DNA from: Terriglobales bacterium
GTDB lineage: Bacteria; Acidobacteriota; Terriglobia; Terriglobales; Acidobacteriaceae
Reading direction: 5' to 3'
DNA: 64,000 bases
Assembly: GCA_050018355.1 (NCBI GenBank)
Contig: JBEKAF010000004.1
Location: 8,634 to 72,633, forward strand
Shown: in pieces, positions 812 through 31,534 of the stretch
Layout: every line of letters starts with the position of its first letter
How positions within the stretch are numbered: position 1 is the first letter of the stretch
Position numbers and translations under genes: made by a program
Notes under the pieces: generated by a model
What the model saw: the letters and a program-made list of their open reading frames with translations, nothing else
Told to the model about the DNA's origin: nothing
Databases searched by the model: none

Positions 812-2947
812 GTGACAAACATCACCGCTTCTGGTGACCAAAATCACGCCTCGCCCCTGGAAAGAGGTGAAACTCCTTGCGCTCCACGACTTTACAAGCA
901 GGCAGGTTTCGGCATAGATTTAGTCCGACGATTTGAATCGTGGAGTTGCATTTTGCGACCATCCTCCGATCATGTTGAGCGCTCCTCCTTGCTTTCAGCC
1001 AAAACCGTGGCTGAATTCCTCCTTTCCAGTGATCTCTTGGAGACCCTGCCAGATGCCATCGTCGCCGTCGACCGCGATGGAACCATTATTCAAGTCAATT
1101 CACAAGCAGAAGAGCTGTTTGGCTATGACCGCGACGAATTGATTGGTCAGAAAGTCGAAATGCTCGTGCCTGAGAGCTACCGCCGCCAGCACCACCATCA
1201 TCGCGAGAACTTCGCGCAAGCACCGAAGACGCGACGGATGAAAGCAGATTTGGATCTCTATGGAAGACGGCGCAATGGCTCGGAATTCCCGGTGGAAATT
1301 AGTCTCAGTCCTGTCTCCACGGAGAATGGAATGTTCGTCTTGAGTGCGATCCGCGACATCAGCGAGCGCAAGAGAATCGCAGAAGAACTGCGAAGAGCGA
1401 ATGAAGAACTGCATCGGAGAACGGCCGAGCAACTGGGGGAATACCGGTCGAGGCTGGCCTCGATCATTGATTCCTCCGAGGACGCCATCATTGGCAAGAA
1501 CTTGGACGGCACCATTGCCAGTTGGAACAAGGGCGCCGAGCGCATCTACGGTTACACGCCAGAAGAGGTCGTCGGAAAGCACATATCCCTTCTAGCTCCC
1601 ACTGATCGTCCCGACGAAATCCCGGAGATTCTACAGAAAACTGCGAGAGGTGAAAGCGTCGAGCATTATGAATCGGTGCGGGTAACCAAGGACGGACGAC
1701 ACTTGGACGTCTCCATTTCCGTGTCTCCCTTGCGCGATGCGAAAGGCGACATCGTGGGAGCATCCGCGATTGCACGCGACATCACGGCCCAGAAACGGGC
1801 TGAGGGCCAGCTTCAGCAATCCCAGAAGATGGAAGCGATCGGCCGGCTTGCGGGAGGCGTCGCCCACGACTTTAACAATATCCTGGGGATCATCAATGCC
1901 TGCACCGAATTCCTCCGCGACCGCATTGATCCCAATGCGGAATCGTCGGTCTACGTCGAGAACATAAAGAAGGCAACCGAACGCGGCTCGTCTTTGACTC
2001 ACCAACTGCTTACCTTCAGCCGGACTCCCGCAATCCAACCCTGTATCCTCGATCTGAACGAGCGGTTGAAGGACATCAGCAAGCTCCTGCGTCCGCTGAT
2101 GGGAGACGATGTCGAGGTTCTCGTTGTGTCCAAATCACCCTCAGCGGTGGTTGAGGCAGACCCTGGCCAGCTTGACCAGGTCTTGGTAAACCTCGCGGTG
2201 AACGCACGCGACGCTATGCCTCGTGGCGGCAAGTTTATTCTCGAAACTCGCGCAATGAAATTTGACGAGGCCTTCGCCGAGCAGCATCAAGCCATGGCGG
2301 CAGGAAGATACGTCCTGCTCGCGATCAGCGATACCGGCAACGGCATGGACGAAGCTACCGTGTCGCGCGTCTTCGAGCCCTTCTTCACCACCAAAGAGGT
2401 GGGCAAGGGAACTGGTTTGGGCCTAGCCACTGTCTATGGCATTGTCAAGCAGAGCGCAGGACACATCTTGGTCTACAGTGAACCGGGATACGGAACGACG
2501 TTTAAAATATATCTCCCCAGCGCGGATCACAAAATCGGGCTCGGATCCAAGACTGAAGTGGAGACGGTCGCTCCGAAACGGCAAGGGACTACGATCCTGC
2601 TCGTGGAAGACGACGAAATCATGCGCAGCCTGACTCGACAACTCCTCCAAGAACACGGCTATACCGTAGTCGAGGCGGATGACGGGAAGTCCGCGCTCGA
2701 ATGGGTGCAGTCTCATCCGGGTCCAATTGATCTATTGTTGACCGACGTAGTGATGCGCCGCATGAGCGGTCCTGAATTAGTTGAGCGCCTGAACGCCTCT
2801 CACCCGAACCTGAAAGTCGTATACATGTCAGGGTACACAGGTGAACTGATCGCGGAACGCGAAGTGTTGAGGCGCGGCATAACTCTCCTCGAAAAGCCTT
2901 TTACCCGCACCGCTCTGCTGAATACCATCCATACGACGTTGGGGTGA
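812..2947 (+). CDS. PAS-domain hybrid sensor histidine kinase / response regulator
   Basis: 711-aa ORF with a GTG start. It has two PAS-like segments (DAIVAVDRDGTIIQVN..., DAIIGKNLDGTIASWN...). It has an H-box GGVAHDFNNIL and an HATPase region (DTGNGMD, GTGLGLATVYGIV). It has a C-terminal receiver (ILLVEDDE...LLLTDVVM...KPF). Confidence 0.9.
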   Translation: MTNITASGDQNHASPLERGETPCAPRLYKQAGFGIDLVRRFESWSCILRPSSDHVERSSLLSAKTVAEFLLSSDLLETLPDAIVAVDRDGTIIQVNSQAEELFGYDRDELIGQKVEMLVPESYRRQHHHHRENFAQAPKTRRMKADLDLYGRRRNGSEFPVEISLSPVSTENGMFVLSAIRDISERKRIAEELRRANEELHRRTAEQLGEYRSRLASIIDSSEDAIIGKNLDGTIASWNKGAERIYGYTPEEVVGKHISLLAPTDRPDEIPEILQKTARGESVEHYESVRVTKDGRHLDVSISVSPLRDAKGDIVGASAIARDITAQKRAEGQLQQSQKMEAIGRLAGGVAHDFNNILGIINACTEFLRDRIDPNAESSVYVENIKKATERGSSLTHQLLTFSRTPAIQPCILDLNERLKDISKLLRPLMGDDVEVLVVSKSPSAVVEADPGQLDQVLVNLAVNARDAMPRGGKFILETRAMKFDEAFAEQHQAMAAGRYVLLAISDTGNGMDEATVSRVFEPFFTTKEVGKGTGLGLATVYGIVKQSAGHILVYSEPGYGTTFKIYLPSADHKIGLGSKTEVETVAPKRQGTTILLVEDDEIMRSLTRQLLQEHGYTVVEADDGKSALEWVQSHPGPIDLLLTDVVMRRMSGPELVERLNASHPNLKVVYMSGYTGELIAEREVLRRGITLLEKPFTRTALLNTIHTTLG

Positions 2948-3305: not shown

Positions 3306-4007
3306 ATGGCCACATACGCCGTAAACAATGCACAGAAACTTGCGCCAGCAGACAAAACCTTTTGCGATCTTCCTCCAGCCGTAGCCGATGCCTTGGAGCA
3401 AGAGGCGCTCACCACCACCTATCCCACGGGGGCGGTTTTGTTCGCGGAAGCGCAGGCGCCGCGGGGAGTGTTCATCGTGCGTCGAGGCCGGGTGAAGCTT
3501 TCCATTTGTGGCAGCGACGGCAGAACGCTGATCCTCCGTATTGTCGACTCCGGTTGCCCGTTGGGAGTCGCCGCGGTAGTTTCCGGACGCCAGTATGAAG
3601 CTACGGCCGAGACCCAGGAACCGTCCGAGATCAGCTTCCTACGACACAGCGACTTGCTGCGCCTCATGCGCCTTCACGGCGAGTTTGCCCTATGGGTGAC
3701 CCAGCACATCAGCCAGGATTACGCCTCTACTTGCCGCGAAATCCGTGACCTGATTCTTTCTGACTCGGCCAGCGAAAAGCTGGCCCGGCTGCTTGTCGGC
3801 TGGCTCGACCAAAACACCACATCCAAGAACCCCAGCCAAGTGAAGCTGGCTTTGACTCACGAAGAGATCGGACAGATGATCGGCTCTTCGCGTGAGACCG
3901 TCAGCCGACTTTTCGCGGGCTTCAAGAAGCAGCGTCTCATCCAGCAGAGCGGCTCTACTCTTGTGATCCCCAACCGCGTTGCCTTGGAATCCCTTATCAC
4001 AGCCTAG
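3306..4007 (+). CDS. Crp/Fnr family transcriptional regulator
   Basis: 233 aa. cNMP-binding-type beta-roll (VFIVRRGRVKLSICGSDGRTLIL) plus a C-terminal HTH (SRETVSRLFAGFKKQRLI). Confidence 0.9.
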   Translation: MATYAVNNAQKLAPADKTFCDLPPAVADALEQEALTTTYPTGAVLFAEAQAPRGVFIVRRGRVKLSICGSDGRTLILRIVDSGCPLGVAAVVSGRQYEATAETQEPSEISFLRHSDLLRLMRLHGEFALWVTQHISQDYASTCREIRDLILSDSASEKLARLLVGWLDQNTTSKNPSQVKLALTHEEIGQMIGSSRETVSRLFAGFKKQRLIQQSGSTLVIPNRVALESLITA

Positions 4008-4190: not shown

Positions 4191-4270
4191 TTCCCTGCTC
4201 ATCCCCGTCATCGGCAGACTCAGTGGGCAGTTCCCTGCTCATCCTCGTAATCAGCAGGCTCAGTGGGCAG
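4191..4270. repeat. 40-nt tandem duplication (2 copies) spanning the stop codon of the 13-heme/cytochrome b gene
   Basis: ttccctgctcatccccgtcatcggcagactcagtgggcag (4191-4230) versus ttccctgctcatcctcgtaatcagcaggctcagtgggcag (4231-4270). The upstream-strand copy encodes LPTEPADYEDEQGTAH*. The second copy would encode LPTESADDGDEQGTVHTT* in another frame. Confidence 0.85.
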
Positions 4271-6310
4271 CTCGACCAGGTGAGCCCGTTCCAGGGCGCG
4301 GAGATACTCCGGGCGGGAATGACGGTAATGATCGGCCGGGACTTTGCCGTTGAGCCAAGCGGTATCCATCGGGTAGACCATGGGATCGAAGATCACCATG
4401 TAGAAGTGCCAGATGAGGATGGAGAAGGTGGCCAGGATCGCCTCATACCAATGCACTGCCGTGGCCGCGTCCGTCACCCATTTCGGATAATGGCGCAGCG
4501 CAAAATTGTTGAACCACAGCAGGAAACCGGAGACGCCCATGACGACGGTGCCCCACATAAAGGCCCAGTATTCCATTTTCTCCGCATAGTTGAATTTCGC
4601 AAACTTCGGCTCCTGTTTTGTGAGGCCAAGGTTGTAGCGGAAGACCTCCAGCATGTCCGTGGCGTCCTTGATTGTCGGGATCATGGCCCAAAGGAAAGAG
4701 CGATCGCGCTTCTTCCGCGCCAGATGCACGAAGTGGTAGAAGACGGCCAGGAGCATGACGATGGCCGCGGTGCGGTGCAGCCCGCCGCGCCAACCGGCGG
4801 CGGACTCCCAGAGCTGCAGCGGCTTGGACCACCAAAGCTCCGGATACTTCAACGCAAATCCCGTGAACACCAGCGTCGGGAAACTCACCATGATGCCCCA
4901 GTGCGCGACGCGGAACCACAAGTTCATCCGCAGCACCATCTCGCCGGATTCTCTCCGCGGGCGGCGCCGAATGAGTTTCGACAGAAAGTCCAGCAGGTTG
5001 TGCAGCAGCATGAAGCCCAGTGTCACCGGGATCAGCACCCAGTACGTCCAGCGAATCCACTCCACCACCGGGTTATTCGGGCCCGCGCCGGTCTGCACAT
5101 GTATGGGACCGATGGTGAATTTGGCTTCGACCACACCTTTGTGACATTGCCCGCACGTTTTCCGGAGGTTTGCGGCATTGACGGTCGAGCGCGGGTCGCT
5201 CGAAGGAAGAATGGCATGCACCCCATGGCATGAAGCACAATTCGCCGCAGTCACTTTCCCTTCTTTGAGGGCCAGCCCGTGATAGCTGCCGGCGTAGGAT
5301 GGCAGGCGATCCGCTGGCAAATCATAGCGCAGTGCCAGGCGGGCATCGCCATGGCAACGCCCGCAGGTCTGCGCGGAGATATTCTCGGCATTTAAGGGCG
5401 AGGCCGGGCTGCCCGGGTCCACGATCAGGTGCTCGCCGTGGCAGTCGATGCAAATGGGAGCATCCCGCACGCCGTTCTTGACCGCTTCCCCGTGGACACT
5501 CTCGTTGAACTCCCGGGCGATTTCCTTGTGGCATTGCGCGCAGGTCTCCACCACTTTCCAGTGATTGACCTTGGATCGCTCATCGGTGGCGGGATAGATG
5601 TCATGAGTGCCATGGCAACTGGAACACGTTGCCGCATCCTTGCCGAGCGCGACCGCGCGCCCGTGAACGCTCAGCTTATAGGAAGCCACCGGATGCGCCA
5701 CCGGAATTTGGTGCCGCGACAAGAACCCGGCATCGCTGTGGCATTTTGCGCAAGTATCCGCCATGTTCTTACGGGCAATGGTCGAGTCCGCCTCACTGGA
5801 GGCTTTCACAGCGTGGATGGAGCCGTGGCAGGACTCGCATTTGGGCGCGTCGGGATCGCCGTTTTTCGCGGCCTGCCCGTGAATGCTGGACGCGAGGTCC
5901 TTCGCTTCCTCGGCATGACACTCCGTGCACTTTCCGGGAATCAGCCTTTCCGCCAAGGTGAGTTCGTGCACGCTGCCGTGACACGAAGCGCACGCAGATT
6001 CGCCGAGGATGGAGTGGGCGCTGGCGGGGAAGGACTTGGCCTCGTCCGCATGGCAGGTGACGCAGTGCACTTTGGCGATTTTGGCGGGATGCGGGAACTC
6101 TTTGATCGCGGTGTGGCAGTCCTTGCAGCTGAGAACCCCGTGTGCGCTGGCGGCATGCTTGTCCGGGTCGATTGAAATGCTCTTCCCGGCGTCGGACTTC
6201 ATCCCCGCCTGGCCATGGCATGCCAGACATTCCTGGTCTCCAGCGGGCAAAGCCGAAGCCGAAGCCAGAGTCAAAGCCAGGTAAACCAAAGCAACTCGAG
6301 TCGCAAGCAT
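4220..6310 (-). CDS. multiheme c-type cytochrome (13 CXXCH) fused to a FdnI/HydC-type cytochrome b membrane domain (CbcL-like architecture)
   Basis: 696 aa. Signal peptide, 13 CXXCH motifs counted in the translation, then about 5 TM helices with conserved His (VAHWGIM, LHRTAAIV, YHFVHL, AVHWYEAIL, IWHFYM). Confidence 0.9.
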   Translation of the reverse strand: MLATRVALVYLALTLASASALPAGDQECLACHGQAGMKSDAGKSISIDPDKHAASAHGVLSCKDCHTAIKEFPHPAKIAKVHCVTCHADEAKSFPASAHSILGESACASCHGSVHELTLAERLIPGKCTECHAEEAKDLASSIHGQAAKNGDPDAPKCESCHGSIHAVKASSEADSTIARKNMADTCAKCHSDAGFLSRHQIPVAHPVASYKLSVHGRAVALGKDAATCSSCHGTHDIYPATDERSKVNHWKVVETCAQCHKEIAREFNESVHGEAVKNGVRDAPICIDCHGEHLIVDPGSPASPLNAENISAQTCGRCHGDARLALRYDLPADRLPSYAGSYHGLALKEGKVTAANCASCHGVHAILPSSDPRSTVNAANLRKTCGQCHKGVVEAKFTIGPIHVQTGAGPNNPVVEWIRWTYWVLIPVTLGFMLLHNLLDFLSKLIRRRPRRESGEMVLRMNLWFRVAHWGIMVSFPTLVFTGFALKYPELWWSKPLQLWESAAGWRGGLHRTAAIVMLLAVFYHFVHLARKKRDRSFLWAMIPTIKDATDMLEVFRYNLGLTKQEPKFAKFNYAEKMEYWAFMWGTVVMGVSGFLLWFNNFALRHYPKWVTDAATAVHWYEAILATFSILIWHFYMVIFDPMVYPMDTAWLNGKVPADHYRHSRPEYLRALERAHLVELPTEPADYEDEQGTAH

Positions 6311-6348
6311 TTCAACACCCTTCTCCGCAGTTCAACCGCAAATCGGCT

Positions 6349-7194
6349 CTAGCGGTACGCGAACAACATCGCATAGATGATCCACAGCACAATGCTGAAT
6401 CCCACCGCCAGCGCTGCCCAGGCGAAGGCTCGAATCGTACGGGTGACGATTGGTTGGTAAGCCTCGTCCATGTTTTCCTCCAGTTGCCCGCTGGCGACCA
6501 GCGCTTCATATTCTCTTGGCTTGTCCCTTTCCAATTCTTCCAGCGGCATGCGCCCGGTGAATACCGTGATGTCCATAGGAAACTTTTCGGGCCGCAAGTG
6601 GGTATTGAAGAAATGCACGGTAAAGATGAAGCCGGTGGCGAGCAGCGCTTCGTCGCTGTGAATGATGGTTGCGACGTTGAGGAACGACCCCGGTATAAAC
6701 CGCGTGAAGAACACCGGAAACCACAGCGTGAGGCCGGTGGAACCGATCACCGCGATTCCCCAAAACACCGCGAAATAATCGAATTTTTCCCAGTACGTCC
6801 AGCGGCCATAGGCAGGCCGCTCGCCGCGGCCCACAAACCACTTCAGCGTGCCCACCAGCTCAGTTAGGTCCCTTCGGTTAGGCATCATGCTGCCCGGTCC
6901 CAGCAGCAGCGCGCGCCACGAACCGTGCTCTCTCTTCTTCGACCGGTACAGGTCCACCAGATGGGTAATGAAAACTCCGAACATCACGACGGCGGCACTC
7001 CGGTGAATGTAGCCTGCGTTCTCGAATCCCCCGAGCAGATGAGAAAGGACCGCCGCCCATTTCGTGTAGGAGAACTTCAGGGTTAACCCCGTCAGCGCCA
7101 GGCACATGAAGCTCACGATCATGCAGATGTGCAGAATCCGCTGCAGCCGGCTGAACCGGACGAACTGGAGTTCTGCAATTTCGCCCTTAGGCAT
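6349..7194 (-). CDS. cytochrome b family membrane protein (FdnI/HydC-like), stand-alone paralog of the C-terminal domain of the 4220..6310 protein
   Basis: Start moved to ATG at 7194 ([29 protein letters not shown]), which overlaps the upstream stop as ATGCCTAA. It has TM helices with the same His pattern as the fused protein. The 7311 start of the track ORF would run inside the upstream gene. Confidence 0.8.
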
Positions 7195-9280
7195 CGGTGC
7201 TCTCCTTGCTCGGCGGAGTTTCAGGCTTTGCGGCCAGTTTCGCTTCGGCGTTGCGCAACTCCCGGCGCATCTGGAAAGCTCGGGGCAGCCAGAGCAGCGT
7301 GTGCATGCCACTGACCACGAATGTCACCAGGAGCAGCGTGGTCATGCCCCAGAAGGTATAGAACAGGAACGGATACTTTCGCGGGTCGTGGTGCGTGGCG
7401 TGCGTCAGGTATCCAGCGAAGCGCCGCGTCGCGCCGGCATGGCACTTCCCGCAGGTGGCCGCGACGTTTGCCCGGCTGAGGTGCGAGCGTGGATCGGTCA
7501 CCCTAAGCACGTCGTGAGCGCCATGGCAGTCATAGCACTTGGCCGCTTTCGTGTACCCAAGCTTGGAGACCTTCCCGTGATAGGTATCAAAATAGGTCTG
7601 GGCGATCTCCGCGTGGCAACGTCCGCACGTGGTCATCACGTCCAGCCGGAAATTGTCCTGATCGGTGCGGCGGATGGCGTGGGCGGTGTGGCAATCGCTG
7701 CAAATGGGAAGTTCTTTGGCCGACTTGCTCACCCCCTTGGAGTGGATGCTGTTTTCGAACTGCTCCTCGATGCCGTGGTGGCACCGGCCGCAGGTGGCCG
7801 GCACGTTGGCGGCGCTGATACTCGATTCCGGATCGGTTCGGGGAAGGACACGGTGAGCGGTGTGGCAACTGGTGCAGGTCGCCGTCACCGTCAGGCCGGT
7901 CTTCAGTAATTTTCCGTGAATGCTCTCCGTGTAGTTCGCGATGATTTCGTGCTGCCTTCCGGTGTAGCGCACCGCGGCCTTCTGGCCCTCCCGGTGACAG
8001 CGCCCGCAAAGCATGGGAACATTGGTCGCAAAAGTCAGCGACTGCGGGTCCTGTTTGTCCAGCACTCCATGCGTGCCATGGCATTCCTTGCAGCTCGGGG
8101 CATTCGGATTATTCTTGGTGGTAAGTTGTCCGTGAATGCTGCCCATGTACTGCTTGCCAATTTCATCGTGGCAAGAGGTGCAGTCCACTTCGTGGGAGAT
8201 GGTCTCGCAAGGCCGCACGCGGGAAGCGTTGACCTCCGAGTGGCATTGGCTGCAGGCAACGTTCCGAAGCCTGCCCGCTTCCTCGCTGTGACGCGAATGG
8301 TTCACCTCGCCCACGTTGACGTACATGGATTGCCCGTCGCGCGCGCGACGCAGTTTCTCGTCTGCGTGGCAACGCATGCAGTCCGCATCGGCCATACCCT
8401 GCGTATAGAAGACATTCCTGATCTTATGCGGCTGATGGCAGTCCACGCAGGCCGGCAGGACGTTGGCTTCCTTTTCCCACAGCGCTCCACGAATGATCTT
8501 GCGGTGGACCACTTCGATTTGCGTGTGGCATTTCGTGCAGGTGGCGGCAATGTTGCGGCGATTGATCGAGGAAGCGGGATCGGTATGCGGCAATATCAAG
8601 TGCGCGGTGTGGCAAGTGGCGCAGGTCGGGGCCACCGACAGTCCCTTCTTCAGCAATGCCTCCCCGTGGATGCTCTCGGAGTAGTTCTCCAAAATATTGT
8701 CCTGGGGAATGGGGCGATTGCGCGAAACCGGAGTTCCTTCCTGATGGCACTGGCCGCAAATGAAGGGCACTTTCAGCGGCAACACCGCTGATCGCGAGTC
8801 CTTCACCGGAACGATGTCGTGGTTCCCGTGACAATTCACACAGCTAGGTGCGAGCGCATCGCCGCGGGCACTCGCCTTCCCGTGGAGGGACCGGGCATAT
8901 TGCTCCTGCTCGGTCGCGTGGCACGTGCCGCACTTTACCCGCGCCGGCTTTTCGTGCGGCAACTCTTTTCCTTCCAGGTCGGCGTGGCAGCCCGTGCACC
9001 CGAAGCTGCCATGCACGGAAGTCGCAAATTTCTTCCCGTCCACGTATAGCGAAACCGTTTTGCCGGCTCGCGTTGTGCTCATGCTCTTCTCGCCGTGGCA
9101 TGCGAGACATTCCGCCCCGGGCTGGTCGGTTTCGCTAGCCGCCGCGTGTCCGGCGCTTTCCGAAGTCAGAAGGAAGAAAACTGTGGCAAGCAGCGGCGCG
9201 ACGATAACACCCAGACCAGCACATCTCTTCCTTCGCACAACTCTTGTTTCAGCCATGTCAAATTCTCGAGCTGGTTTCAT
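7187..9280 (-). CDS. multiheme c-type cytochrome (19 CXXCH) with a C-terminal TM anchor
   Basis: 697 aa. N-terminal signal/anchor, 19 CXXCH motifs counted, recurrent S-x-HG plus CXXCH pairs, C-terminal hydrophobic helix YPFLFYTFWGMTTLLLVTFVVSGMHTLLWL. An alternative start is ATG at 9256. Confidence 0.9.
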   Translation of the reverse strand: MKPAREFDMAETRVVRRKRCAGLGVIVAPLLATVFFLLTSESAGHAAASETDQPGAECLACHGEKSMSTTRAGKTVSLYVDGKKFATSVHGSFGCTGCHADLEGKELPHEKPARVKCGTCHATEQEQYARSLHGKASARGDALAPSCVNCHGNHDIVPVKDSRSAVLPLKVPFICGQCHQEGTPVSRNRPIPQDNILENYSESIHGEALLKKGLSVAPTCATCHTAHLILPHTDPASSINRRNIAATCTKCHTQIEVVHRKIIRGALWEKEANVLPACVDCHQPHKIRNVFYTQGMADADCMRCHADEKLRRARDGQSMYVNVGEVNHSRHSEEAGRLRNVACSQCHSEVNASRVRPCETISHEVDCTSCHDEIGKQYMGSIHGQLTTKNNPNAPSCKECHGTHGVLDKQDPQSLTFATNVPMLCGRCHREGQKAAVRYTGRQHEIIANYTESIHGKLLKTGLTVTATCTSCHTAHRVLPRTDPESSISAANVPATCGRCHHGIEEQFENSIHSKGVSKSAKELPICSDCHTAHAIRRTDQDNFRLDVMTTCGRCHAEIAQTYFDTYHGKVSKLGYTKAAKCYDCHGAHDVLRVTDPRSHLSRANVAATCGKCHAGATRRFAGYLTHATHHDPRKYPFLFYTFWGMTTLLLVTFVVSGMHTLLWLPRAFQMRRELRNAEAKLAAKPETPPSKESTDA

Positions 9281-9299
9281 AAATGCCTTGCAGCTCGGA

Positions 9300-9375
9300 A
9301 GGCACGTCCCTCAGGGGCTAAAGCCCGCATTCTTCTCGGCCTAGGCGGCACGGCTGAAGCCGTGCCCTACCCAAA
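9300..9375. repeat. dual-hairpin intergenic repeat, copy A (REP/MITE-like family)
   Basis: cctcaGGGGCTaaAGCCCgc ... GGCACGGCtgaaGCCGTGCC. The same two hairpins recur in inverted order at 13405-13475 and 59095-59170. Confidence 0.75.
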
Positions 9376-9406
9376 ACCGATTCATGAAACCAGCTTCCGA
9401 CAACGC

Positions 9407-10855
9407 TTACTTCATGCCAAGATCCGTAAGCACTTTCGGGTTTCCCTCCTGAACCGCCAGCAGGTTGTGGCACGCACTGCAATCGTTGGATATCGTCTGG
9501 CCATCGGCACTGGTATGACTACCGTCATGGCAGCGGAAGCAGCCCGGCGAATCATTGTGCCCAATATTATTCGGGTGAGTGCCCCAGGTCACACGCATGT
9601 CGGGGAAGATGTTGCGCAGGTAGATCGCTGCCACCTCCTTGCCAGATTGCTCCACCACCGTGCGCCGAGTCTGGTAGATCTGCGGGTAATTGGTTTGATA
9701 GAAATTGTTGATCTCGCCAGTGATGCGCTGCTGCGCCACATCGCGGGTGGGATAATTCACCTTGAGAAACTCGACCGCCTTCTTCCTGATGTAGGGAAGC
9801 TCTGGGCTAATGTGCCCGAGCGACATTTGCTTGTCCACTGCGTTTTCGGGCAAGTCGAAGGCATGCGTGGGCCGGTTGTGGCAATCCACGCAATCCATCA
9901 CTCGATGCTCTCCTTTGTCCAATTGTTGTTGGGTTGGCTTCGCATCACTGGAAATGAATTCGGTCGTCTTTCCCTGATCGTCGGTGTAATCCACGACTGG
10001 GATCGTCTGCCGCTCGGCATCGGTCGAAATGTAGCGGATGCGTGCGTTGTCGGCGAGGTGGTGCCCGTGGATGCCGACCGAACCCTGCCACGTTATTCCG
10101 CCCACTTTCAGCAGCAACACGTCCGTCTGGGCTGTGTTTTTTTCGTCGTCCTTGTAGCTGGTGTTCACCAGGAACTTCTCACCGGTAAAGCGCTGCGGCC
10201 AGTGACATTGCTCACAGGTTTCGCGCGCCGGGCGGAGATACTTTACCGGCGAAGGAATGGGGCGCGAATAGGTGTGGAAGGTTACCGCGAAGACCTGTCG
10301 CAGACCGGAAAGCTTCGATCGCACAAACCACCCCGCTCCGGGTCCGATGTGGCACTCGACACAGTCCACACGCGAGTGTGGAGAATTCTGATAGGCCGTA
10401 TACTCGGGGTCCATCACGCGGTGACAAGTCTGCCCGCAGAACTCCGTTGAATCCATGTACTGCACGCCGCGGTACGATGCGGTCCCAACAATGAGCAGAT
10501 TGAGCACGGTCGCCGCGGCCACGTACTCCAGGGTATGCCGCACCACGGGCAGCCCTAGGTCGATGGCGGGGAAAACCGCCGGCAGTTTCCCGCTCCGGGT
10601 CAGACTTCGTCGCCTGAGCCAGATGCCAAGTGGAATCAGTAGCAAGCCGAGTACAAAAATGCCCGGGAGGATCAAGAAGATCAGAAGGCCGATATAAGGA
10701 TGCGGTGGCCCCGGCAAGAAGATTTCATAGAACCAGAAGGCGATGGTAGTGAGCGCCGTGCTCGTCGTGATCACGGCGCCCGTAAGTGTGAGGAAATTCT
10801 GCCCCAGGAAATAGATTGGCTGCAACCGCTCTCGGATGCTTTCTCGCAGAGTCAT
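9407..10855 (-). CDS. membrane-anchored NapC/NirT-related multiheme cytochrome c (ImcH-like architecture)
   Basis: 482 aa. It has about 3 N-terminal TM helices. It has five CXXCH motifs (CVECH, CEQCH, CVDCH, CFRCH, CSACH) and one CX3CH (CGQTCH). Confidence 0.85.
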   Translation of the reverse strand: MTLRESIRERLQPIYFLGQNFLTLTGAVITTSTALTTIAFWFYEIFLPGPPHPYIGLLIFLILPGIFVLGLLLIPLGIWLRRRSLTRSGKLPAVFPAIDLGLPVVRHTLEYVAAATVLNLLIVGTASYRGVQYMDSTEFCGQTCHRVMDPEYTAYQNSPHSRVDCVECHIGPGAGWFVRSKLSGLRQVFAVTFHTYSRPIPSPVKYLRPARETCEQCHWPQRFTGEKFLVNTSYKDDEKNTAQTDVLLLKVGGITWQGSVGIHGHHLADNARIRYISTDAERQTIPVVDYTDDQGKTTEFISSDAKPTQQQLDKGEHRVMDCVDCHNRPTHAFDLPENAVDKQMSLGHISPELPYIRKKAVEFLKVNYPTRDVAQQRITGEINNFYQTNYPQIYQTRRTVVEQSGKEVAAIYLRNIFPDMRVTWGTHPNNIGHNDSPGCFRCHDGSHTSADGQTISNDCSACHNLLAVQEGNPKVLTDLGMK

Positions 10856-10975
10856 TTGAAACCGCTAGTCTCCTTATCTTCAATGCGCAGCCGCGTAGAC
10901 ACACTCCACCCTTGCCGCGGATCATCCGCCGCGCTGGACAATCTCCCTAATCTTGATGGCAAGAACCGGCCAGGA

Positions 10976-11302
10976 CTATTTTTTCAGAGTGCGGATGTAA
11001 GCTACCAGTCCCTTAACGTCTTCCGGCTTCAACTTATCAGCATACTTGGGCATCTTGTTCTTGCCGTTCGTGATGATTCCTGTGAGATCCGCGTCCGACA
11101 TTTTCTGCACTTCGGCAGTCGTGAAATCGTGGGCGCCCATTGTCTTCCCCATCTTCGAACCGGTTCCGTCAGCGCCATGGCAGCCGGCACATTTTGATTT
11201 GAACGTCTCGGCTGCGCCTTGCGCATGCGCCGATAGGGGAAGGCTGAAAACAACAGCCAATGCTGTTGCGAAAGCAAACACTTTGATGTCCATTCTCTTC
11301 AT
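10976..11302 (-). CDS. class I monoheme cytochrome c
   Basis: Start set at ATG 11302 (MKRMDIKVFAFATALAVVFSLPLSAHA signal peptide). Single CAGCH motif and a distal Met (NKMPKY). The longer track ORF (to 11536) has a non-protein-like N-terminus. Confidence 0.85.
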   Translation of the reverse strand: MKRMDIKVFAFATALAVVFSLPLSAHAQGAAETFKSKCAGCHGADGTGSKMGKTMGAHDFTTAEVQKMSDADLTGIITNGKNKMPKYADKLKPEDVKGLVAYIRTLKK

Positions 11303-11395
11303 CTTCAAGCTCCATTCGAGTTTTTCGTTAACCCAACATCGCAAGGAGAATACACCTGCAAACTGCAATATTGAAGCCTGTGACGCCGGAGGTTC

Positions 11396-11411
11396 TGTGA
11401 TCCCCGTCACA
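11396..11411. promoter_or_regulatory. perfect CRP-consensus palindrome TGTGA-N6-TCACA upstream of the cytochrome operon
   Basis: tgtgaTCCCCGtcaca. The centre is about 101 nt upstream of the cytochrome c ATG. A -10-like CAATAT (minus strand, 11373-11368) lies 23-28 nt downstream of the box, which is class II (-41.5) geometry. Confidence 0.5.
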
Positions 11412-11544: not shown

Positions 11545-13350
11545 TTAAGCGCCTGCTCCCTCAAAATGCGCTTCGATTTCTTCTAAAGTTTTTCCTTTCG
11601 TTTCCGGCAGAAACACCGCGGCAATGATGAAGTAAATTACGGTGCAGCCGGCAAAGCCAAAAAACATGGTCGCGTAACCATGCTTGCCGACGGTGGGCAG
11701 GAACATGGCGGCAATGGTCGTCGAAACTGCCTGGTTGATCAACAGGGCAATGCTCATGCCGTTGGAGCGAATCCGGGTCGGCATCAACTCCGAAAGCGCC
11801 AGCCACACGCATACTCCGGGACCGATCGCGAAAAACGCCATGAAAACGAAGAGGCTGATCGCCACCAGCCAACCATTGTGAGCGGTCGGCACTGGAGTAA
11901 CCAGCGCATTGTCAATTTTTAGCGAAGCCTTGCGCGATGCATCGAGATTGCTGAACGGATTCGAGAAAAACGCGACTACTTTATTGGCGGGCACGCAGCT
12001 TTCGCGCGTGATCTCGATGGGTTTAGCGGACTTGTCGTCAGAACGAGCGACCTTGGTCGCGGCGCGGAAATCTCCATACGAATAGATGACGACCAGAGAT
12101 GTGGGCCGGTGGGCGATCGCCTTGCCGGCGTCTCCGCTCGCAGCGAGGAGCGCATCCGCAGCCTTCTCGTTGTAAAGCAACGTGACCTTCTGGTCGGCGT
12201 CGACCATGGACTGAACCGCGTCCCGAGAATCCACGCGCAGCCTTTCCGTCCGACGGAACAGCACGCCAGTGCAGAGGAGCGACACAATGATGCCCGCGCT
12301 GCCCACCGACAGCAGAAACTTGCGTCCATTGCGGTCCACCAGCAGGACGCCGCCAATGGTCATCAGGAAATTCACGATCGTGAAAAGAACGTAGCCCCAG
12401 TGAGCCTGGACATCGGAAAGACCACTCTGCAAAAGAATGTTGGTGTTGTAACCAATGATGGAGTTGACTCCGGTGGCCTGGTTGCAAGCGAGAATGACAC
12501 AGGCCAGCACAAACGGGATCACGTATTTGCGGCGCAAAAGCGATCCTTGTGCGTTCACCCCTTGAACGTTCACCCCGGGGACATGCGCCCCGGTTGAGGT
12601 TTTGGCTTTTTCAGCGGCGGCAGCTTGTTCCATTTCCGCCAGCTCGACGTCCGCTTGCTGGTTGGTGCGCGAGCGGAGAAGCGCGGTGTAGGCGGCATCT
12701 CTTTTCCCGCGGCGAAACAGCCAGCGCGGGGACTCCGAAACCATAAGGCTGCCGATCACGAACAAAATGCCGGGTGGCAGCGAAACCCAGAAAATGCTGC
12801 GCCAAGCCGTGTCTTTGAAGGCGAAGAGTCTCGCGGGATCGCCCAGCTTCGCCACCTCTTCGACGCGAATACTGAAGAACATGCCAACAATGGCCGCCGT
12901 CACGATACCGAGTGTCAGCAGCCATTGGAAGATGCCCGTCCCCTTGCCACGGTTCGATGCCGCCAGACACTCCGCCAAATACAGCGGGACAACTACGCCG
13001 ATCAGGCCAGCGCTGATGCCCTGCAAGAGGCGGCCAAGAACCAACGACTCATAGCCATGCGAGAGCGCAATGATGGGAATGCTGAAGACAAACAACAATC
13101 CGCTGAGCATCATCAGCGGCTTGCGCCCGATCCAGTCGGCCAGCGCCCCAGCAAACAGGGTTGAGATCACGCTCCCGAGGAGCACGGCAGCGACAACGAT
13201 GGAAAGCTGGCCCGCATTCAACCCGGAGGTGGCCTCCAGATAAGGCAAAGCCCCCGCAATGATGCCGACATCCACGCCGTACAGCAATCCGCCAAGTCCT
13301 GCTACCAGCAGCAGGAAGCGGTTGTAGCCAGCTTTATCGTTTTGTGCCAC
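11545..13350 (-). CDS. MFS transporter, sugar porter family, with an inserted ~125-aa non-membrane domain
   Basis: Sugar-porter signatures GRKPLMMLSG, PESPRWL, GPGVCVWLALSELMPTRIRSNG, PETKGKTLEEIE. Start proposed at GTG 13350 (AAAGGA 9 nt upstream), because the ORF portion from 13351 to 13485 runs through an intergenic repeat copy. Confidence 0.8.
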   Translation of the reverse strand: MAQNDKAGYNRFLLLVAGLGGLLYGVDVGIIAGALPYLEATSGLNAGQLSIVVAAVLLGSVISTLFAGALADWIGRKPLMMLSGLLFVFSIPIIALSHGYESLVLGRLLQGISAGLIGVVVPLYLAECLAASNRGKGTGIFQWLLTLGIVTAAIVGMFFSIRVEEVAKLGDPARLFAFKDTAWRSIFWVSLPPGILFVIGSLMVSESPRWLFRRGKRDAAYTALLRSRTNQQADVELAEMEQAAAAEKAKTSTGAHVPGVNVQGVNAQGSLLRRKYVIPFVLACVILACNQATGVNSIIGYNTNILLQSGLSDVQAHWGYVLFTIVNFLMTIGGVLLVDRNGRKFLLSVGSAGIIVSLLCTGVLFRRTERLRVDSRDAVQSMVDADQKVTLLYNEKAADALLAASGDAGKAIAHRPTSLVVIYSYGDFRAATKVARSDDKSAKPIEITRESCVPANKVVAFFSNPFSNLDASRKASLKIDNALVTPVPTAHNGWLVAISLFVFMAFFAIGPGVCVWLALSELMPTRIRSNGMSIALLINQAVSTTIAAMFLPTVGKHGYATMFFGFAGCTVIYFIIAAVFLPETKGKTLEEIEAHFEGAGA

Positions 13351-13404
13351 AGTGGCAGTCCTTTCGCCTTTAAGGAACCTCTGATTAAGTTTGGCTCTCG
13401 GACA

Positions 13405-13475
13405 GCTTTGAAGGGGCATGGCTTCAGCCATGCCGTTAGAACCCGCCACGCAAGCGGCTTTAGCCGCCGAGGGCC
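13405..13475. repeat. dual-hairpin intergenic repeat, copy B
   Basis: GGCATGGCttcaGCCATGCC (13415-13434) followed by GCGGCTttAGCCGC (13454-13467). Confidence 0.7.
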
Positions 13476-13518
13476 GCATATTCATAGCATCGCGCGCCCT
13501 CTTGGCTCGGTGAGAGTT

Positions 13519-13821
13519 CTATGCGTGTGCTCGTTCGAGATGTTTCAGGGTCGGCAACCCCCTAATGGATTTCCCAGCCTTCTTCTGCGCGACGCGTAAC
13601 TCAAAGAGACTTTGCAGGTTCAGCCAGAATTCGGCCGTCGTACCGAAAAAGTGGGCGAGGCGCAGGGCTGTGTCGCCAGTGATGGCGCGCCTTCCATTTA
13701 GTATCTCGGTCACGCGGTTGGTCGGAACATTGAGCTGCCGCGCAAGCTCCGCGGCGCTTATGCCCAGTTCCTTCAATTCTTCGGCCAGATGTTCGCCAGG
13801 GTGAATAGCGGTAAGTGCCAT
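13519..13821 (-). CDS. higA: HigA-family antitoxin (XRE-type HTH)
   Basis: MALTAIHPGEHLAEELKELGISAAELARQLNVPTNRVTEILNGRRAITGDTALRLAHFFGTTAEFWLNLQ is the typical HigA/VapI sequence. Start set at ATG 13821. Confidence 0.85.
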   Translation of the reverse strand: MALTAIHPGEHLAEELKELGISAAELARQLNVPTNRVTEILNGRRAITGDTALRLAHFFGTTAEFWLNLQSLFELRVAQKKAGKSIRGLPTLKHLERAHA

Positions 13822-13831
13822 GATGTTTCTC

Positions 13832-14116
13832 CTAATGGTAATCAACAATCTCCACGTTCGATGGGCCGGGCGTTTCTTCGGGCCATGCAAAGCAAATCCG
13901 CCACTGGTCATTGATGCGGAGGCCGTATTGGCCCTTTCGATCCCCTCTCAGCGCTTCAAGACGGTTGCCGGGTAATACGCCGAGGTCTTTAAGCACGACG
14001 GCCGCCTCTAATCGGTCCAGCTTCAGACGGGCGGCACGTTCGATCCCAGAGAACGCCTTTACCCGTTTACCGGCGGCGAAGTCCCTGGTCCGCTTGTCGC
14101 GGCAGCTGACGATCAT
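13832..14116 (-). CDS. higB: HigB-family toxin (RelE/ParE superfamily, plasmid maintenance system killer)
   Basis: 94 aa. It contains FAAGKRVKAFSGIERAARLKLDRLEAA...LEALRGDRKGQYGLRINDQWRICF. The toxin-first gene order is typical of hig loci. Confidence 0.85.
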   Translation of the reverse strand: MIVSCRDKRTRDFAAGKRVKAFSGIERAARLKLDRLEAAVVLKDLGVLPGNRLEALRGDRKGQYGLRINDQWRICFAWPEETPGPSNVEIVDYH

Positions 14117-19583: not shown

Positions 19584-21380
19584 ATGCTTTTCCTCGACAA
19601 ATTCCGGTGGCATTTTCGCCCGCCTGTGGCCGTGGCTCTGCTTGTCGGTTGGGCGGTAAGCCCCGGCTGGGCATCCAATCCCGAAACTCAGAAACCCTGT
19701 ACCAGCCAAAATGCCAGCCCAAATATCGGACCGAGTACCGGCCAAAGTACCAGCGAAAAAGGAGACAGCCCTTCGGCGGAGCCGCCCGGAGCGGAACCGG
19801 CTGAAAGAAATCCAATGGCAAAGAAGGGTGTGGTGGCCGGTTTCTGCCCGGCGTACGTCGCGCAAAATCTGGTATCGGATCAGAAAACGATTTGGACCAG
19901 CCCGTTGCATCTGCGTGCGCAAGATAGAAACTGGCTCGTGCCCTTGGGCGTCGGCACCCTCGGCCTGGTGGCGGCCGACCGCGACATCATGCGGCATTTC
20001 GGAAGCACCCCAATTGCCCACAGCAGCAGTTTCAGCAACTACGGGCTCGCGGCCATGGTCGGTAGCGCTGCCAGTTTGTACCTGCGTGGGGCAACCACCA
20101 ACGACGACCACAGCCGCGAGACCGGCTTTCTCGCGGGTGAAGCGGCGGTCAACAGTGTAGTCGTGGCTGAGGCCATGAAGCTGGTTTTCCAGAGAGCGCG
20201 TCCTAACGCCCCGAACGCCGGCAGCTTCGGAGCGGGAGGCGCCTCGTTTCCCTCGGAACATGCCCTAGCCGCGTGGTCGGTCGCGAGCGTCATCGCCCAC
20301 GAATATCCCGGACCGTTGACCAAACTGCTGGCCTACGGCGCGGCCACGGGAATCAGTCTTTCGCGGGTCGCAGCCCGCGAACACTTCCCCTCCGACGTGG
20401 TCGTGGGCAGCGCCCTCGGCTATCTGATCGGCCGGTATGAGTACCGGGCGCATCACGACCCGGAGTTGCCGGGCGCGAGCGCGGGCAGTTTCGAGCAAGA
20501 TTTCGAGGAGAAAGGACCACCGCGCACCCGTACCCCGGCCGAACTCGGATCGCCATCCGTTCCCCTGGACTCCTGGGTTTATGCGGCCTTCGACCGCCTG
20601 GCCGCGCTAGGGTATGCGCCCAGCGCCTACGCCAATCTGCGGCCATGGACGCGCATGGAGTGTGCCCGGATCATCGCGGCCGCCGGCGACGACCTAGTCG
20701 TCGACAATCTGGGCGCTAAGGATAACCATCAGTCGGAGGCGTACCGGCTCCACTCGGCGCTCGCTGCCGAGTTCGCGAACGAACTCGGGCGCTTCGACGG
20801 TTCCGGGACTTCCGATGTCCGGGTAGAGAGCATTTATACGCGTTACCTCGGCATCGCCGGCTCGCCGCTCGACGACGGTTATCACTTTGGCCAGACCCTC
20901 ATCAATGACTACGGCCGTCTCTACGGCCAGGGTTCGAACCTGGTGAGCGGGGCTTCGGCGTCGGGATCGGCCGGGCCGGTGGCGTTCTATGTGCGCGGCG
21001 AGTATCAGCACGCGGCAGCGCTTCCCGCCTACAGTCAGGCGGTTCAGCAAATGATTGGCACGATCGACGTGACGCCGCCTCAGGATCCGATCCATACAAC
21101 CGTCATCGATCAATTTCGTCTTCTGGACGCTTACGCGGCGTTTAACTTCAAGACCATTCAGATCTCGGCCGGCCGGCAAAGTCTGTGGTGGGGACCGGGC
21201 GAGGGCGGGCCGCCGAACTTGAGCGACAACGCGCAACCTATGGACATGCTGCGTCTGACCAATCCATCTCCCTGGCGGCTTCCGAGTTTCTTCCATTGGC
21301 TGGGGCCCATGCGCTGGGACTCCTTCTTCGGATTGATGGCCGGGCACCACTACCCGCCACTTCCAGCGATTGATGGCTAG
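19584..21380 (+). CDS. PAP2 phosphatase domain fused to the N-terminal part of a Wzi-like capsule-assembly outer-membrane protein; ends at an in-frame TAG
   Basis: PAP2 motifs KLVFQRARP, PSEH, SRVAAREHFPSD. After the TAG at 21378-21380 the same frame stays open (KLSFKPTPNLEFGFSRIITF...). Confidence 0.8.
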   Translation: MLFLDKFRWHFRPPVAVALLVGWAVSPGWASNPETQKPCTSQNASPNIGPSTGQSTSEKGDSPSAEPPGAEPAERNPMAKKGVVAGFCPAYVAQNLVSDQKTIWTSPLHLRAQDRNWLVPLGVGTLGLVAADRDIMRHFGSTPIAHSSSFSNYGLAAMVGSAASLYLRGATTNDDHSRETGFLAGEAAVNSVVVAEAMKLVFQRARPNAPNAGSFGAGGASFPSEHALAAWSVASVIAHEYPGPLTKLLAYGAATGISLSRVAAREHFPSDVVVGSALGYLIGRYEYRAHHDPELPGASAGSFEQDFEEKGPPRTRTPAELGSPSVPLDSWVYAAFDRLAALGYAPSAYANLRPWTRMECARIIAAAGDDLVVDNLGAKDNHQSEAYRLHSALAAEFANELGRFDGSGTSDVRVESIYTRYLGIAGSPLDDGYHFGQTLINDYGRLYGQGSNLVSGASASGSAGPVAFYVRGEYQHAAALPAYSQAVQQMIGTIDVTPPQDPIHTTVIDQFRLLDAYAAFNFKTIQISAGRQSLWWGPGEGGPPNLSDNAQPMDMLRLTNPSPWRLPSFFHWLGPMRWDSFFGLMAGHHYPPLPAIDG

Positions 21381-22131
21381 AAGCTGAGTTTCAAGCCGAC
21401 GCCCAACCTGGAATTCGGGTTCTCGCGCATCATCACGTTCCGTCCGGTGACGCTCGGCAAGTTCTGGAGTGGCTTCATCAGTTTCGGGAACAACAAGAAT
21501 TCGATACCCGGCACCGCGGCCTACGTGGGCGACCGGCGTGGTGGCTTTGATTTCAGCTATCGCGTTCCCGGCCTGCGAAAATGGATGGTCCTATATAACG
21601 ATGGGATGACCGACGATGACCCTTCGCCTCTGAGTGCTCCGGGACGCTCGCTGATGAATCCGGGCGTTTACCTGCCGCAAATTCCCCGAATCCCGAAGCT
21701 TGATTTCCGCGCCGAGGTGGTGTGGTCGGACGCTCCGAAGGTGTCCAACTTTGGCGGCAAATTCTTCTACTACGACCCCGGCTACCGCGACTGCTACACC
21801 AACGACGGGCACCTGCTCGGTTCCTGGGTGGGCCCGGGAGGGCCACGGTCTTCAACTCTGGAGCACCTATTGGCTTTCGCCCCGTAACTCGGTCGAAGTG
21901 GGATACCGGAAAGCCCATGTCGACCGGGACTTTATTCCCGCGGGCGGCAACATTCAGGATTTCTCTGTGCGAGCGACTTTTCGACTGCGCCCGGAAATGG
22001 AGATTGCCACATTTCTCCAGTACGAACGCTGGAACTTCCCCGTTCTCTCCCCGCTCGCCGGACCGAACACGGTGGCCTCGATTGAGTTCACCTACCATCC
22101 GAAGTGGAGGAAGGCGCTGAACTTCCAATGA
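21381..22131 (+). pseudogene. C-terminal remainder of the PAP2-Wzi-like gene, separated by an in-frame TAG and a +1 frameshift
   Basis: Frame 0 continues to 21887. The protein-like sequence then switches to the frame of ORF 21700..22131 (REGHGLQLWSTYWLSPRNSVEVGYRKAHVDRDF...) at the gggcccggg run, 21829-21838. Confidence 0.6.
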
Positions 22132-22245
22132 TCTCAAAAACTATGATCCCGGAAAAAACGCTCTTCGAAGTAACAACCTCGGAAATGACGACCCCGGAAA
22201 TAACAATCATGACTTCCGAAAAACTGATCCTCGGAAGTTGTAAGC
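22128..22245. repeat. degenerate ~15-nt periodic repeat (6-7 units, core C-Y-CGGAAA) between the wzi-like and wza genes
   Basis: The units are atgatcccggaaaaaac, ctcttcgaagtaac, aacctcggaaatgac, gaccccggaaataac, atgacttccgaaaaac and tgatcctcggaagttg. Confidence 0.5.
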
Positions 22246-22304
22246 CCCGAGCCGAATCGTCCGCACTGGCTGGAAGCTGCTGCTTTGCCATTCCGGCCAG
22301 CCGG

Positions 22305-26182: not shown

Positions 26183-26202
26183 CCCAGCCCCATGCCCATG
26201 CG

Positions 26203-28571: not shown

Positions 28572-28595
28572 TGGGCGCGCGATTCCATCCCCCAA

Positions 28596-31518: not shown

Positions 31519-31534
31519 AGACCAGGAGAAATGG

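Follow-up and report, generated by a model that had tools for sequence, protein, structure and literature searches.

The subject of this paper is a cluster of five cytochrome genes, labelled here G1–G5, which we consider a candidate system for the export of respiratory electrons. It lies in a 64-kb stretch of DNA (‘the window’) from contig JBEKAF010000004.1 of a Terriglobales bacterium, with all five genes on the minus strand. G1 (10976–11302) encodes a monohaem class I cytochrome c of 108 amino acids (aa) with the motif CAGCH; G2 (9407–10855) encodes a six-haem ImcH-family protein of 482 aa; G3 (7187–9280) encodes a protein of 697 aa (689 aa from the ATG at 9256) with 19 CXXCH motifs; G4 (6349–7194) encodes a dihaem cytochrome b of FdnI/HydC type of 281 aa; and G5 (4220–6310) encodes a CbcL-type fusion of 696 aa, in which 13 CXXCH motifs are followed by a b domain. 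The c-haem motifs of G1 to G5 number 1, 6, 19, 0, and 13, which gives 39 over four genes, and because every other open reading frame (ORF) of the window carries at most one CXXCH, the 39 motifs are not a product of chance. An earlier note on this DNA, made from the sequence alone, had listed five co-directional minus-strand genes with these haem counts, and all of them are present; its end coordinate for the cluster, 11411, coincides with no gene boundary.

Pfam and NCBIfam searches, of the kind that the note had recommended, agree on the domain types: G2 is above cutoff for Cytochrom_NNT (PF03264) and G5 for Ni_hydr_CYTB (PF01292), which G4 also matches below threshold. The ATG of G4 lies 4 nucleotides (nt) upstream of the TAA of G3, in the final G3 codons, and the two genes, whose overlap the earlier note had recorded, therefore share 8 nt. 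The spacer between G4 and G5 measures 38 nt. The earlier description of the genes as tightly spaced or overlapping fits these two junctions and fails at the other two, where spacers of 120 nt (G1–G2) and 126–150 nt (G2–G3) intervene.

We assign G2 to the ImcH family as a six-haem inner-membrane protein, predicted to act as a quinol dehydrogenase. Hydropathy peaks at approximately residues 21–46, 55–73, and 108–126 indicate three N-terminal transmembrane (TM) helices; these hydrophobic segments align with the TM segments of family members, and the loop between the second and the third is basic (WLRRRSLTRSGK). The haem domain follows the third helix, with a CX3CH motif (CGQTCH) at 140 and CXXCH motifs at 165, 214, 322, 439, and 459. 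Cytochrom_NNT matches residues 114–197 at 38.1 bits (cutoff 24.1), and the NrfH structure 2j7a (2j7a_C) matches residues 110–219 (E = 3.7e-4) with the essential Lys in register. A homologue search of 1.84 billion representative proteins, grouped in 50%-identity clusters, returned 887 clusters that match G2 at E < 1e-30, mostly aligned near full length. In an alignment of 48 diverse relatives (33–61% identity), C140, C144, and H145, the five CXXCH motifs, five further (distal) His residues, and K181 do not vary, Q187 occurs in 90% of the sequences or more, and Y196 is found in the majority.

The motif map published for the Geobacter ImcH protein GSU3259 (132/156/205/311/428/448/486) is colinear with the six motifs of G2, at a numbering offset of +8 derived from the two maps. 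With this offset, K181, Q187, and Y196 of G2 correspond to K173, Q179, and Y188 of Geobacter ImcH, where Q179 has been proposed as the Gln that binds haem 1 on its distal side and K173 matches the essential NrfH Lys (bioRxiv 10.1101/2023.05.03.539133). G2 resembles GSU3259, then, in its three TM helices, in a CX3CH motif placed right after the third of them, in an NrfH-like core, in six colinear motifs, and in the retained Lys, Gln, and Tyr, and the NapC/NirT-related, ImcH-like character proposed in the earlier note is borne out motif for motif. Unlike GSU3259, G2 has six haem motifs rather than seven and lacks the C-terminal extension of approximately 40 residues that carries haem 7; D135 occupies the position of ImcH E127, at which the family consensus is Glu; the gene stands in an operon with a monohaem cytochrome c and CbcL-type genes, whereas Geobacter imcH is monocistronic; and the likely partner is a class I monohaem cytochrome instead of the PpcA-type trihaem cytochrome of Geobacter. 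Within the family, proteins with six haems are the most frequent (70 of 150 representative clusters), seven-haem relatives align with G2 over its full length at 37–44% identity, and the GSU3259 motif map was found in none of the top 150 representatives.

The same region, residues 110–219, aligns with NrfH (2j7a) over the TM helix and the first haems, including the essential Lys. G2 differs from the NrfH/NapC/NirT/CymA/TorC quinol dehydrogenases in having three TM helices where they have one, six haems against their four or five, and CX3CH as its first motif where theirs is the CXXCHxM motif of haem 1. In addition, G2 scores far under the equivalog cutoffs (NrfH, 55.8 against a cutoff of 134.2; TorC, 26 against 455), does not match the NapC/NirT equivalog model, and has no NrfA or other reductase partner gene.

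G5 consists, in this order, of a signal peptide, a 13-haem c domain, a linker TM helix, and a four-TM FdnI-type dihaem b domain. It matches PF01292 at 57.6 bits (cutoff 30.1) and Escherichia coli FdnI (1kqf_C) at E = 1e-9. H470, H512, H620, and H635, none of which varies among 43 homologues, align with the FdnI haem-b ligands H18, H57, H155, and H169. The first nine CXXCH motifs of G5 (28, 62, 83, 107, 128, 158, 187, 229, and 257) coincide with those published for Geobacter CbcL, GSU0274 (34, 57, 82, 105, 129, 158, 186, 229, and 257), and its four extra motifs are the 158–257 set shifted by 129 residues; residues 141–270 and 271–400 form a tandem tetrahaem duplication (46% identity, z = 40 against shuffles). 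Seventeen non-motif His residues are invariant in the c domain and would therefore suffice for all-bis-His c-haem ligation, so that the c haems of G5, like those of GSU0274, are probably all bis-His. Judged by these features, G5 is a CbcL-type protein plus one additional tetrahaem module. It shares with GSU0274 the combination of a periplasmic multihaem c domain and a HydC/FdnI-type dihaem b membrane domain, which upholds the CbcL-like architecture suggested earlier, and departs from that nine-haem protein in its 13 haems and in five rather than six predicted TM helices.

G3 starts with an N-terminal signal or anchor, carries its 19 CXXCH motifs, and ends in one C-terminal TM helix; G4 has five TM helices and no c-haem motif. 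G4 matches TIGR01583, the equivalog model of the formate dehydrogenase-N (FDH-N) gamma subunit, at 2.3e-11, and PF01292 at 25.2 bits, below the cutoff of 30.1; it is 30% identical to the b domain of G5. Its residues H22, H64, H179, and H194 align with FdnI H18, H57, H155, and H169, and the same four His are also kept in a fused orthologue and in a nine-haem relative. Both b modules of the cluster thus retain all four bis-His haem b ligands, a feature on which the earlier note had let its interpretation depend. Within G3 the tetrahaem module is repeated approximately four times (m1 against m3, 58/125 identities, z = 52). These repeats, together with the duplication in G5, indicate that the 13- and 19-haem chains grew by tandem duplication of a tetrahaem module of approximately 129 residues. 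The only solved structure similar to the N-terminal haems is 28pb_A, a recently deposited 278-aa ‘Cytochrome c’ of unstated origin, which covers approximately the first five haems of G3 (residues 57–135, E = 7e-7) and of G5 (residues 27–163, E = 2e-9). We considered it as a CbcL periplasmic domain and rejected it, because its motif spacing does not fit GSU0274.

For comparison, we scanned one genome per species and obtained 80 acidobacterial loci with an ImcH relative (47–88% identity), labelled L0xx below. The C-terminal helix of G3 and the chain of G4 are colinear with single proteins of 941–959 aa in Holophagales (L046, L047), which have 19 motifs and the same C-terminal residue string as the G4 chain. 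SBA3_800005 (WP_105502606.1, Solibacteraceae bacterium SbA3) likewise has 19 CXXCH motifs followed by six TM helices, with each motif offset by 26–33 residues from its G3 counterpart at near-identical spacing, and is evidently the orthologue of G3 plus G4; it is, however, a single polypeptide of 931 aa, whereas the window and those Terriglobales loci that we examined have a split gene. The split falls in the cytoplasmic linker after the first TM helix. We rejected a frameshift artefact as its cause: the split form is kept in six species loci (L005, L007, L011, L016, L023, L054), and the best 120 G3 homologues are all 620–700 aa long, that is, of the split form. Instead of an assembly error, the arrangement is a fixed gene fission with predicted translational coupling in Terriglobales, the Holophagales proteins being fused. 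Compared with GSU0274, the G3/G4 protein has 19 haems and two genes, and the cluster combines two side-by-side CbcL-type paralogues that are only approximately 30% identical.

In G4 and G5, as in FdnI (1kqf_C), four helices form a dihaem b bundle, and each of the four His ligands is aligned. They differ from it in scoring under the equivalog cutoffs (57 and 44 bits for the two b modules against TIGR01583, cutoff 115.85), in having no FdnG or FdnH partner genes, in a periplasmic partner that is a tethered or co-translated multihaem cytochrome c, and in the presumed direction of electron flow, which would be reversed. Neither FdnG/FdnH nor hydrogenase genes occur in the window. No CXXCK or CX15CH motif is present in any of the five proteins, none of the NrfA, Hao, Otr, or MccA-type families is among their Pfam and NCBIfam matches, and the equivalog matches that do appear (NrfH, NrfB, DmsE, HmcA, TorC, FdnI) are all far below their cutoffs. 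These results bear out the expectation that the cluster is not a known catalytic enzyme system of the Nrf, Hao, Otr, or Mcc type.

G1 has a Sec signal peptide, the CAGCH motif, and a Met at the usual ‘KMP’ distal-ligand position, and matches the Pfam families Cytochrome_CBB3 (1.4e-14) and Cytochrom_C (5e-10). Its nearest solved structures are Kuenenia c-552, cytochromes c6, and the cytochrome c domains of CcoP and bc1. These features identify it as a predicted secreted or periplasmic class I monohaem cytochrome c. A longer version of 186 aa, from an ORF that extends to 11536, was rejected in favour of the 108-aa form, as neither homologues nor most gene calls back it.

We take the five genes to be one ancestral operon that has received a recent repeat insertion. 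The spacer between G2 and G3 contains a REP/MITE-like hairpin repeat of approximately 75 nt (9300–9375, strand unassigned), with further copies at approximately 13385–13460 and 59075–59150 that bring the number in the window to three; the stems co-vary between the copies (GGCACGGCT/AGCCGTGCC, GGCATGGCT/AGCCATGCC, GGCACGACT/AGTCGTGCC). A strong hairpin in a spacer of this length could mean that G1–G2 and G3–G4–G5 are separate transcription units with unrelated roles, and many relatives do hold G1–G2 without G3–G5, or G1–G2–G5 without G3–G4. We nevertheless regard such a division as very unlikely. In the closest relatives (L007, L011, L016, L023) the same spacer measures only approximately 20 nt, and the hairpin is therefore a recent insertion; it has no T-run, and a terminator scan did not call it. 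Moreover, imcH and cbcL-like genes are neighbours in 47 of the 80 species in spite of rearranged gene order (e.g. L054, L056). A promoter and terminator scan of the region found nothing above shuffled expectation. Another copy of the repeat contains the start of a 646-aa ORF for a sugar transporter of the major facilitator superfamily (MFS) at 11545–13485 (minus strand); its N-terminal stretch of approximately 30 residues resembles a translation of the repeat, and the protein therefore probably begins at a later start codon.

In the 80 loci, we counted the neighbours of imcH within 10 kb. A G1-like monohaem cytochrome gene is present in 49/80, usually directly upstream and often duplicated, and a CbcL-like gene in 47/80. 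A decahaem cytochrome of approximately 330 aa follows in frequency (39/80), then a candidate porin (28/80; a protein of 800–900 aa that carries a signal peptide, matches no Pfam family, and ends in ...YAF), a Crp-family regulator (20/80), a Rieske protein with cytochrome b (11–12/80), and an MtrC/MtrF-like decahaem cytochrome (7/80). Six loci have all five genes in the layout of the window (L005, L007, L009, L011, L016, L023; the G3 of L009 reads as two ORFs), and a three-gene form without G3/G4 occurs in approximately 14. Four loci (L017, L020, L030, L056) unite decahaem, candidate-porin, monohaem c, CbcL-like, and ImcH genes in one cluster, which is co-directional in L017, L020, and L056, while L030 has a Rieske/cytochrome b block on the opposite strand; in L035 and L078, MtrC-like and decahaem genes precede the CbcL-like and ImcH genes. 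The earlier note had called the haem load unusual. This is an overstatement: many Terriglobales share the whole layout, no CbcL type is more frequent at acidobacterial imcH loci than the fused one with 13 haems, and a fused 19-haem form has already been catalogued.

In many Acidobacteriaceae and ‘Acidoferrum’ genomes, the decahaem gene lies immediately upstream of the monohaem c gene and imcH (L050, 6134–9468; L020, 2182–5724; L056, 1003–4615), and the accompanying secreted protein of 800–900 aa that ends in ...YAF is a candidate outer-membrane barrel. In ‘Candidatus Acidoferrum’ (L020, 6177–8974; L017, 6167–8955), a block of Rieske, cytochrome b, and nonahaem genes stands between the candidate-porin gene and imcH.

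Downstream of the cluster, the genes that the earlier note had named as neighbours were found where expected. A Crp/Fnr-family regulator gene (3306–4007, plus strand; Pfam cNMP_binding and HTH_Crp_2) converges with the 3′ end of G5; beyond it lie a gene for a PAS–PAS hybrid histidine kinase with a receiver domain, identified by its Pfam domains (812–2947, plus strand), and ric (ScdA_N plus hemerythrin; minus strand, from 539 to 3), of which only the 5′ part is present, as it is truncated by the window start. Just outside the window, beyond ric, follows nnrS, with which ric forms a nitrosative-stress pair (L001, 15772–17845). The Crp-family protein of the window is without the N-terminal Cys cluster of FNR. 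Its orthologue adjoins the cluster in L008, L010, L013, L015, and L016, and the PAS kinase is conserved beside the Crp gene in L008, L010, L013, and L015; the 20 loci with Crp-family genes near imcH were counted by ORF clustering, and tblastn adds further loci with orthologues of the window protein. A search of the window for an FNR/Crp box (TTGA-N6-TCAA) found none. The Crp-family protein is a candidate regulator, and the PAS kinase a candidate sensor, of the cluster. Beside the decahaem–porin–imcH cluster of L050, a Crp-family regulator (4897–5682, minus strand) does carry an N-terminal Cys cluster (CPACLNRCSGWFC) and is possibly an FNR-like Fe–S sensor.

These neighbours invite the thought that the cluster is a quinol:cytochrome c route to soluble periplasmic acceptors under the control of the adjacent Crp-family protein, with low-O2 cytochrome c oxidases, cytochrome c peroxidase, and nitrogen-oxide reductases or detoxification as examples of such acceptors. 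In this strain ric, nnrS, the Crp-family regulator, and the PAS kinase are all close by, G1 is closest to carriers of the c6, c552, and CcoP type, and Rieske/cytochrome b genes adjoin imcH in the 11–12 related loci already counted. We think it improbable all the same. In none of the 80 related loci did we find ric or nnrS at 10 kb or less from imcH, for which reason we also rejected a nitrosative-stress link as a conserved association; Terriglobia already own bc1 and alternative complex III (ACIII) for cytochrome c reduction (PMC8407424); chains of 13 and 19 haems are excessive for a soluble monohaem carrier; no reductase gene lies within the window; and the relatives tie these genes to decahaem, candidate-porin, and MtrC-like genes.

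It is this last association that makes extracellular electron transfer the most likely purpose. We lean, if only slightly, towards the view that the cluster exports electrons outward, from menaquinol to the periplasm and on to extracellular electron transfer, by analogy with Geobacter. Its products would then form three parallel inner-membrane menaquinol:cytochrome c oxidoreductase modules (G2, G5, and G3/G4) plus the small soluble cytochrome G1. The predicted anatomy of G2 is an NrfH-like haem 1 site (CX3CH, Lys, Gln) at the outer face of the membrane, followed by the six-haem chain; that of G5 is a multihaem c domain in the periplasm, linked through a single helix to a membrane-spanning four-helix dihaem b bundle; and G3 plus G4 would be the same type of enzyme in two polypeptides. 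The quinone site of FdnI is on the cytoplasmic side (1kqf structure). G2, of the ImcH type, would oxidise menaquinol on the periplasmic side, with protons released outward, and the CbcL-type modules would pass electrons across the membrane via the two b haems to their c-haem chains, as the Geobacter and FdnI analogies suggest; the b-haem route would conserve less energy and work at lower acceptor potentials. Jointly, the modules may discharge respiratory electrons to the periplasm over a range of potentials, from which carriers such as G1 would pass them to an outer-membrane conduit encoded elsewhere in the genome, the terminal acceptors being extracellular: humic or particulate organic matter, or Fe(III).

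The published properties of the Geobacter proteins supply the basis for this mechanism. ImcH oxidises menaquinol in an electroneutral reaction and passes the electrons to periplasmic cytochromes (bioRxiv 10.1101/2023.05.03.539133), the nine haems of CbcL are bis-His-ligated with a potential of approximately −194 mV and reduce PpcA (PMC9129911), and the two serve different potential windows, ImcH with high- and CbcL with low-potential acceptors (PMC4251993). The ImcH/CbcL anatomy of the window proteins thus supports the earlier suggestion of a conduit from the quinone pool to the periplasm; the proposed extension to the cell exterior is strengthened by the neighbourhoods of the relatives.

Several points weigh against outward export. 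No outer-membrane cytochrome or porin gene lies within the 64-kb window, which, as the earlier note had stated for porin–cytochrome partners, holds no decahaem or candidate-porin gene. The case for the acidobacterial members is built on sequence and on analogy with Geobacter, and the homology to GSU3259 and GSU0274 is drawn from published motif maps and a family-wide alignment. The AlphaFold2 model of G5, made from the 43-sequence alignment, was poor (pLDDT 57.6, pTM 0.40) and was used solely for helix positions. G1 resembles high-potential carriers that usually feed oxidases. Finally, FdnI-type b subunits natively reduce quinone, and the CbcL/MtoC/MtrH family is also present in Fe(II) oxidisers (PMC6295460).

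These last points lead to the opposite direction of flow, in which the CbcL-type modules would take electrons from the periplasm or from outside the cell and transfer them to menaquinone on the cytoplasmic face of the membrane; the donor could be Fe(II), reduced humics, or a periplasmic hydrogenase or formate dehydrogenase acting via cytochromes. The modules would work as a proton-motive half-loop in the manner of Fdn-N, analogous to the MtoC/MtoD of Fe(II) oxidisers or to Hmc/Nhc-type complexes, and ImcH and G1 would return electrons to periplasmic acceptors or oxidases. Sequence does not mark the direction in CbcL/MtoC/MtrH, whose members include those of Fe(II) oxidisers (PMC6295460); the b modules are of FdnI/HydC type with the same four His, and the Fdn-N module reduces quinone; a class I monohaem cytochrome belongs to the cluster, as MtoD does in mto clusters; and members of the host lineage are for the most part aerobes or microaerobes that have several terminal oxidases (PMC8407424). 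We consider inward flow unlikely, although it deserves some weight, on three grounds. Quinol oxidation is the one role to which ImcH homologues have been tied to date (PMC6295460). All of the c haems seem to have bis-His ligation, for which the value in CbcL is approximately −194 mV, and so low a potential suits electrons from menaquinol better than electrons from Fe(II) at acid pH. Lastly, no periplasmic dehydrogenase gene adjoins the cluster.

If electrons are exported, the length of the haem chains may itself matter. Wires of 13 and 19 haems, approximately 10–15 nm long, may span most of the periplasm and dock, with no carrier in between, on the periplasmic decahaem cytochrome of an outer-membrane conduit. 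Within the same proposal, the three modules would give graded energy conservation, with the b-haem modules tuned to the acceptor potential; alternatively, the b-haem modules and ImcH could be two arms of a periplasm-to-periplasm redox loop. Taken together, docking with graded or loop operation is in our estimate doubtful. If it were true, electrons in peat Terriglobales would travel from menaquinol to the surface of the cell along a hard-wired route that needs no shuttle.

Elsewhere, the window carries genes for the polymerisation and export of capsule and exopolysaccharide (EPS), for the Leloir enzymes of galactose metabolism, for sugar transporters, and for the assimilatory reduction of sulfate, and the presence of capsule/EPS and galactose genes agrees with the EPS-producing heterotroph envisaged in the earlier note. 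A large capsule/EPS locus occupies 19584–35348; it comprises genes for a Wzi–PAP2 fusion, a 902-aa Wza-like exporter with SLBB domains, Wzz/GNVR, and Wzy, as well as several GT2 glycosyltransferases and Polysacc_synt_2. Between the transporter gene and a cysH block lies a HigB-like toxin/HTH antitoxin pair (13519–14116, minus strand). The window matches peat-bog metagenome contigs from several samples of the Joint Genome Institute (JGI), the identical G2 sequence occurs on 65 contigs, and homologues of the cluster proteins number in the thousands in peat and soil Terriglobales and in metagenome sequences. The exact cluster proteins have already been deposited as ‘MAG: Terriglobales bacterium’ (MAG, metagenome-assembled genome; NCBI MGD1213700–MGD1213704, locus tags near ABR861_01795) under the generic names ‘NapC/NirT family cytochrome c’, ‘hypothetical protein’, and ‘cytochrome c3 family protein’.

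ImcH homologues in Acidobacteria have been on record since 2014 (PMC4251993), and six-motif homologues have been listed for Acidobacterium capsulatum, Solibacter usitatus, and others (PMC6295460, PMC4251993). A. capsulatum, which can be cultured, has its ImcH locus in the ACP_0476 region. A survey of 2018 catalogued 71 ImcH and 138 CbcL/MtoC/MtrH homologues with 3–23 haems, including SbA3_800005; its tables show adjacent imcH and cbcL locus tags for a Syntrophobacterales MAG, and it reported no mtrAB or mtoAB next to imcH (PMC6295460). The description of peat ‘Sulfotelmatobacter’ MAGs, also of 2018, stated that known metal-reduction genes are absent. More recently, the dominant Acidobacteriota of peat were found to express porin–cytochrome clusters at depth, in a preprint of 2026 that deals with the components in the outer membrane and outside the cell and leaves the inner-membrane entry point aside (bioRxiv 10.64898/2026.05.27.727921). 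The present cluster shares habitat and host lineages with these EET1 and EET2 clusters, and the decahaem, candidate-porin, and MtrC-like genes of its relatives are of that kind; unlike EET1 and EET2, the window holds only the inner-membrane and periplasmic part.

Against this background, the cluster is a haem-expanded variant of the known and widespread ImcH and CbcL types, whose acidobacterial homologues are already on record. In the literature searched, we found no description of an operon of a monohaem cytochrome c, ImcH, and two diverged CbcL paralogues in Terriglobales, of an increase from 9 through 13 to 19 haems by duplication of the tetrahaem module, of a conserved fission of the G3/G4 type, or of imcH lying repeatedly together with decahaem and candidate-porin genes in Acidobacteriaceae. 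We count as newer the arrangement of the five genes in one operon, the duplication of haem modules, and the fission that relatives have kept.

These findings do not overturn current understanding and will not surprise a specialist, and they are useful for peat biogeochemistry. The cluster illustrates how a haem wire can grow by module duplication and how the halves of a split cytochrome stay paired, and it provides marker genes that evolve slowly, as well as a defined target for studies of expression and for tests in heterologous hosts. A large part of all soil carbon is stored in northern peat, and anaerobic CO2 production there is thought to depend on electron transfer to organic matter; for the missing inner-membrane entry step of such transfer in peat Acidobacteriota, this cluster and its relatives are obvious candidates.

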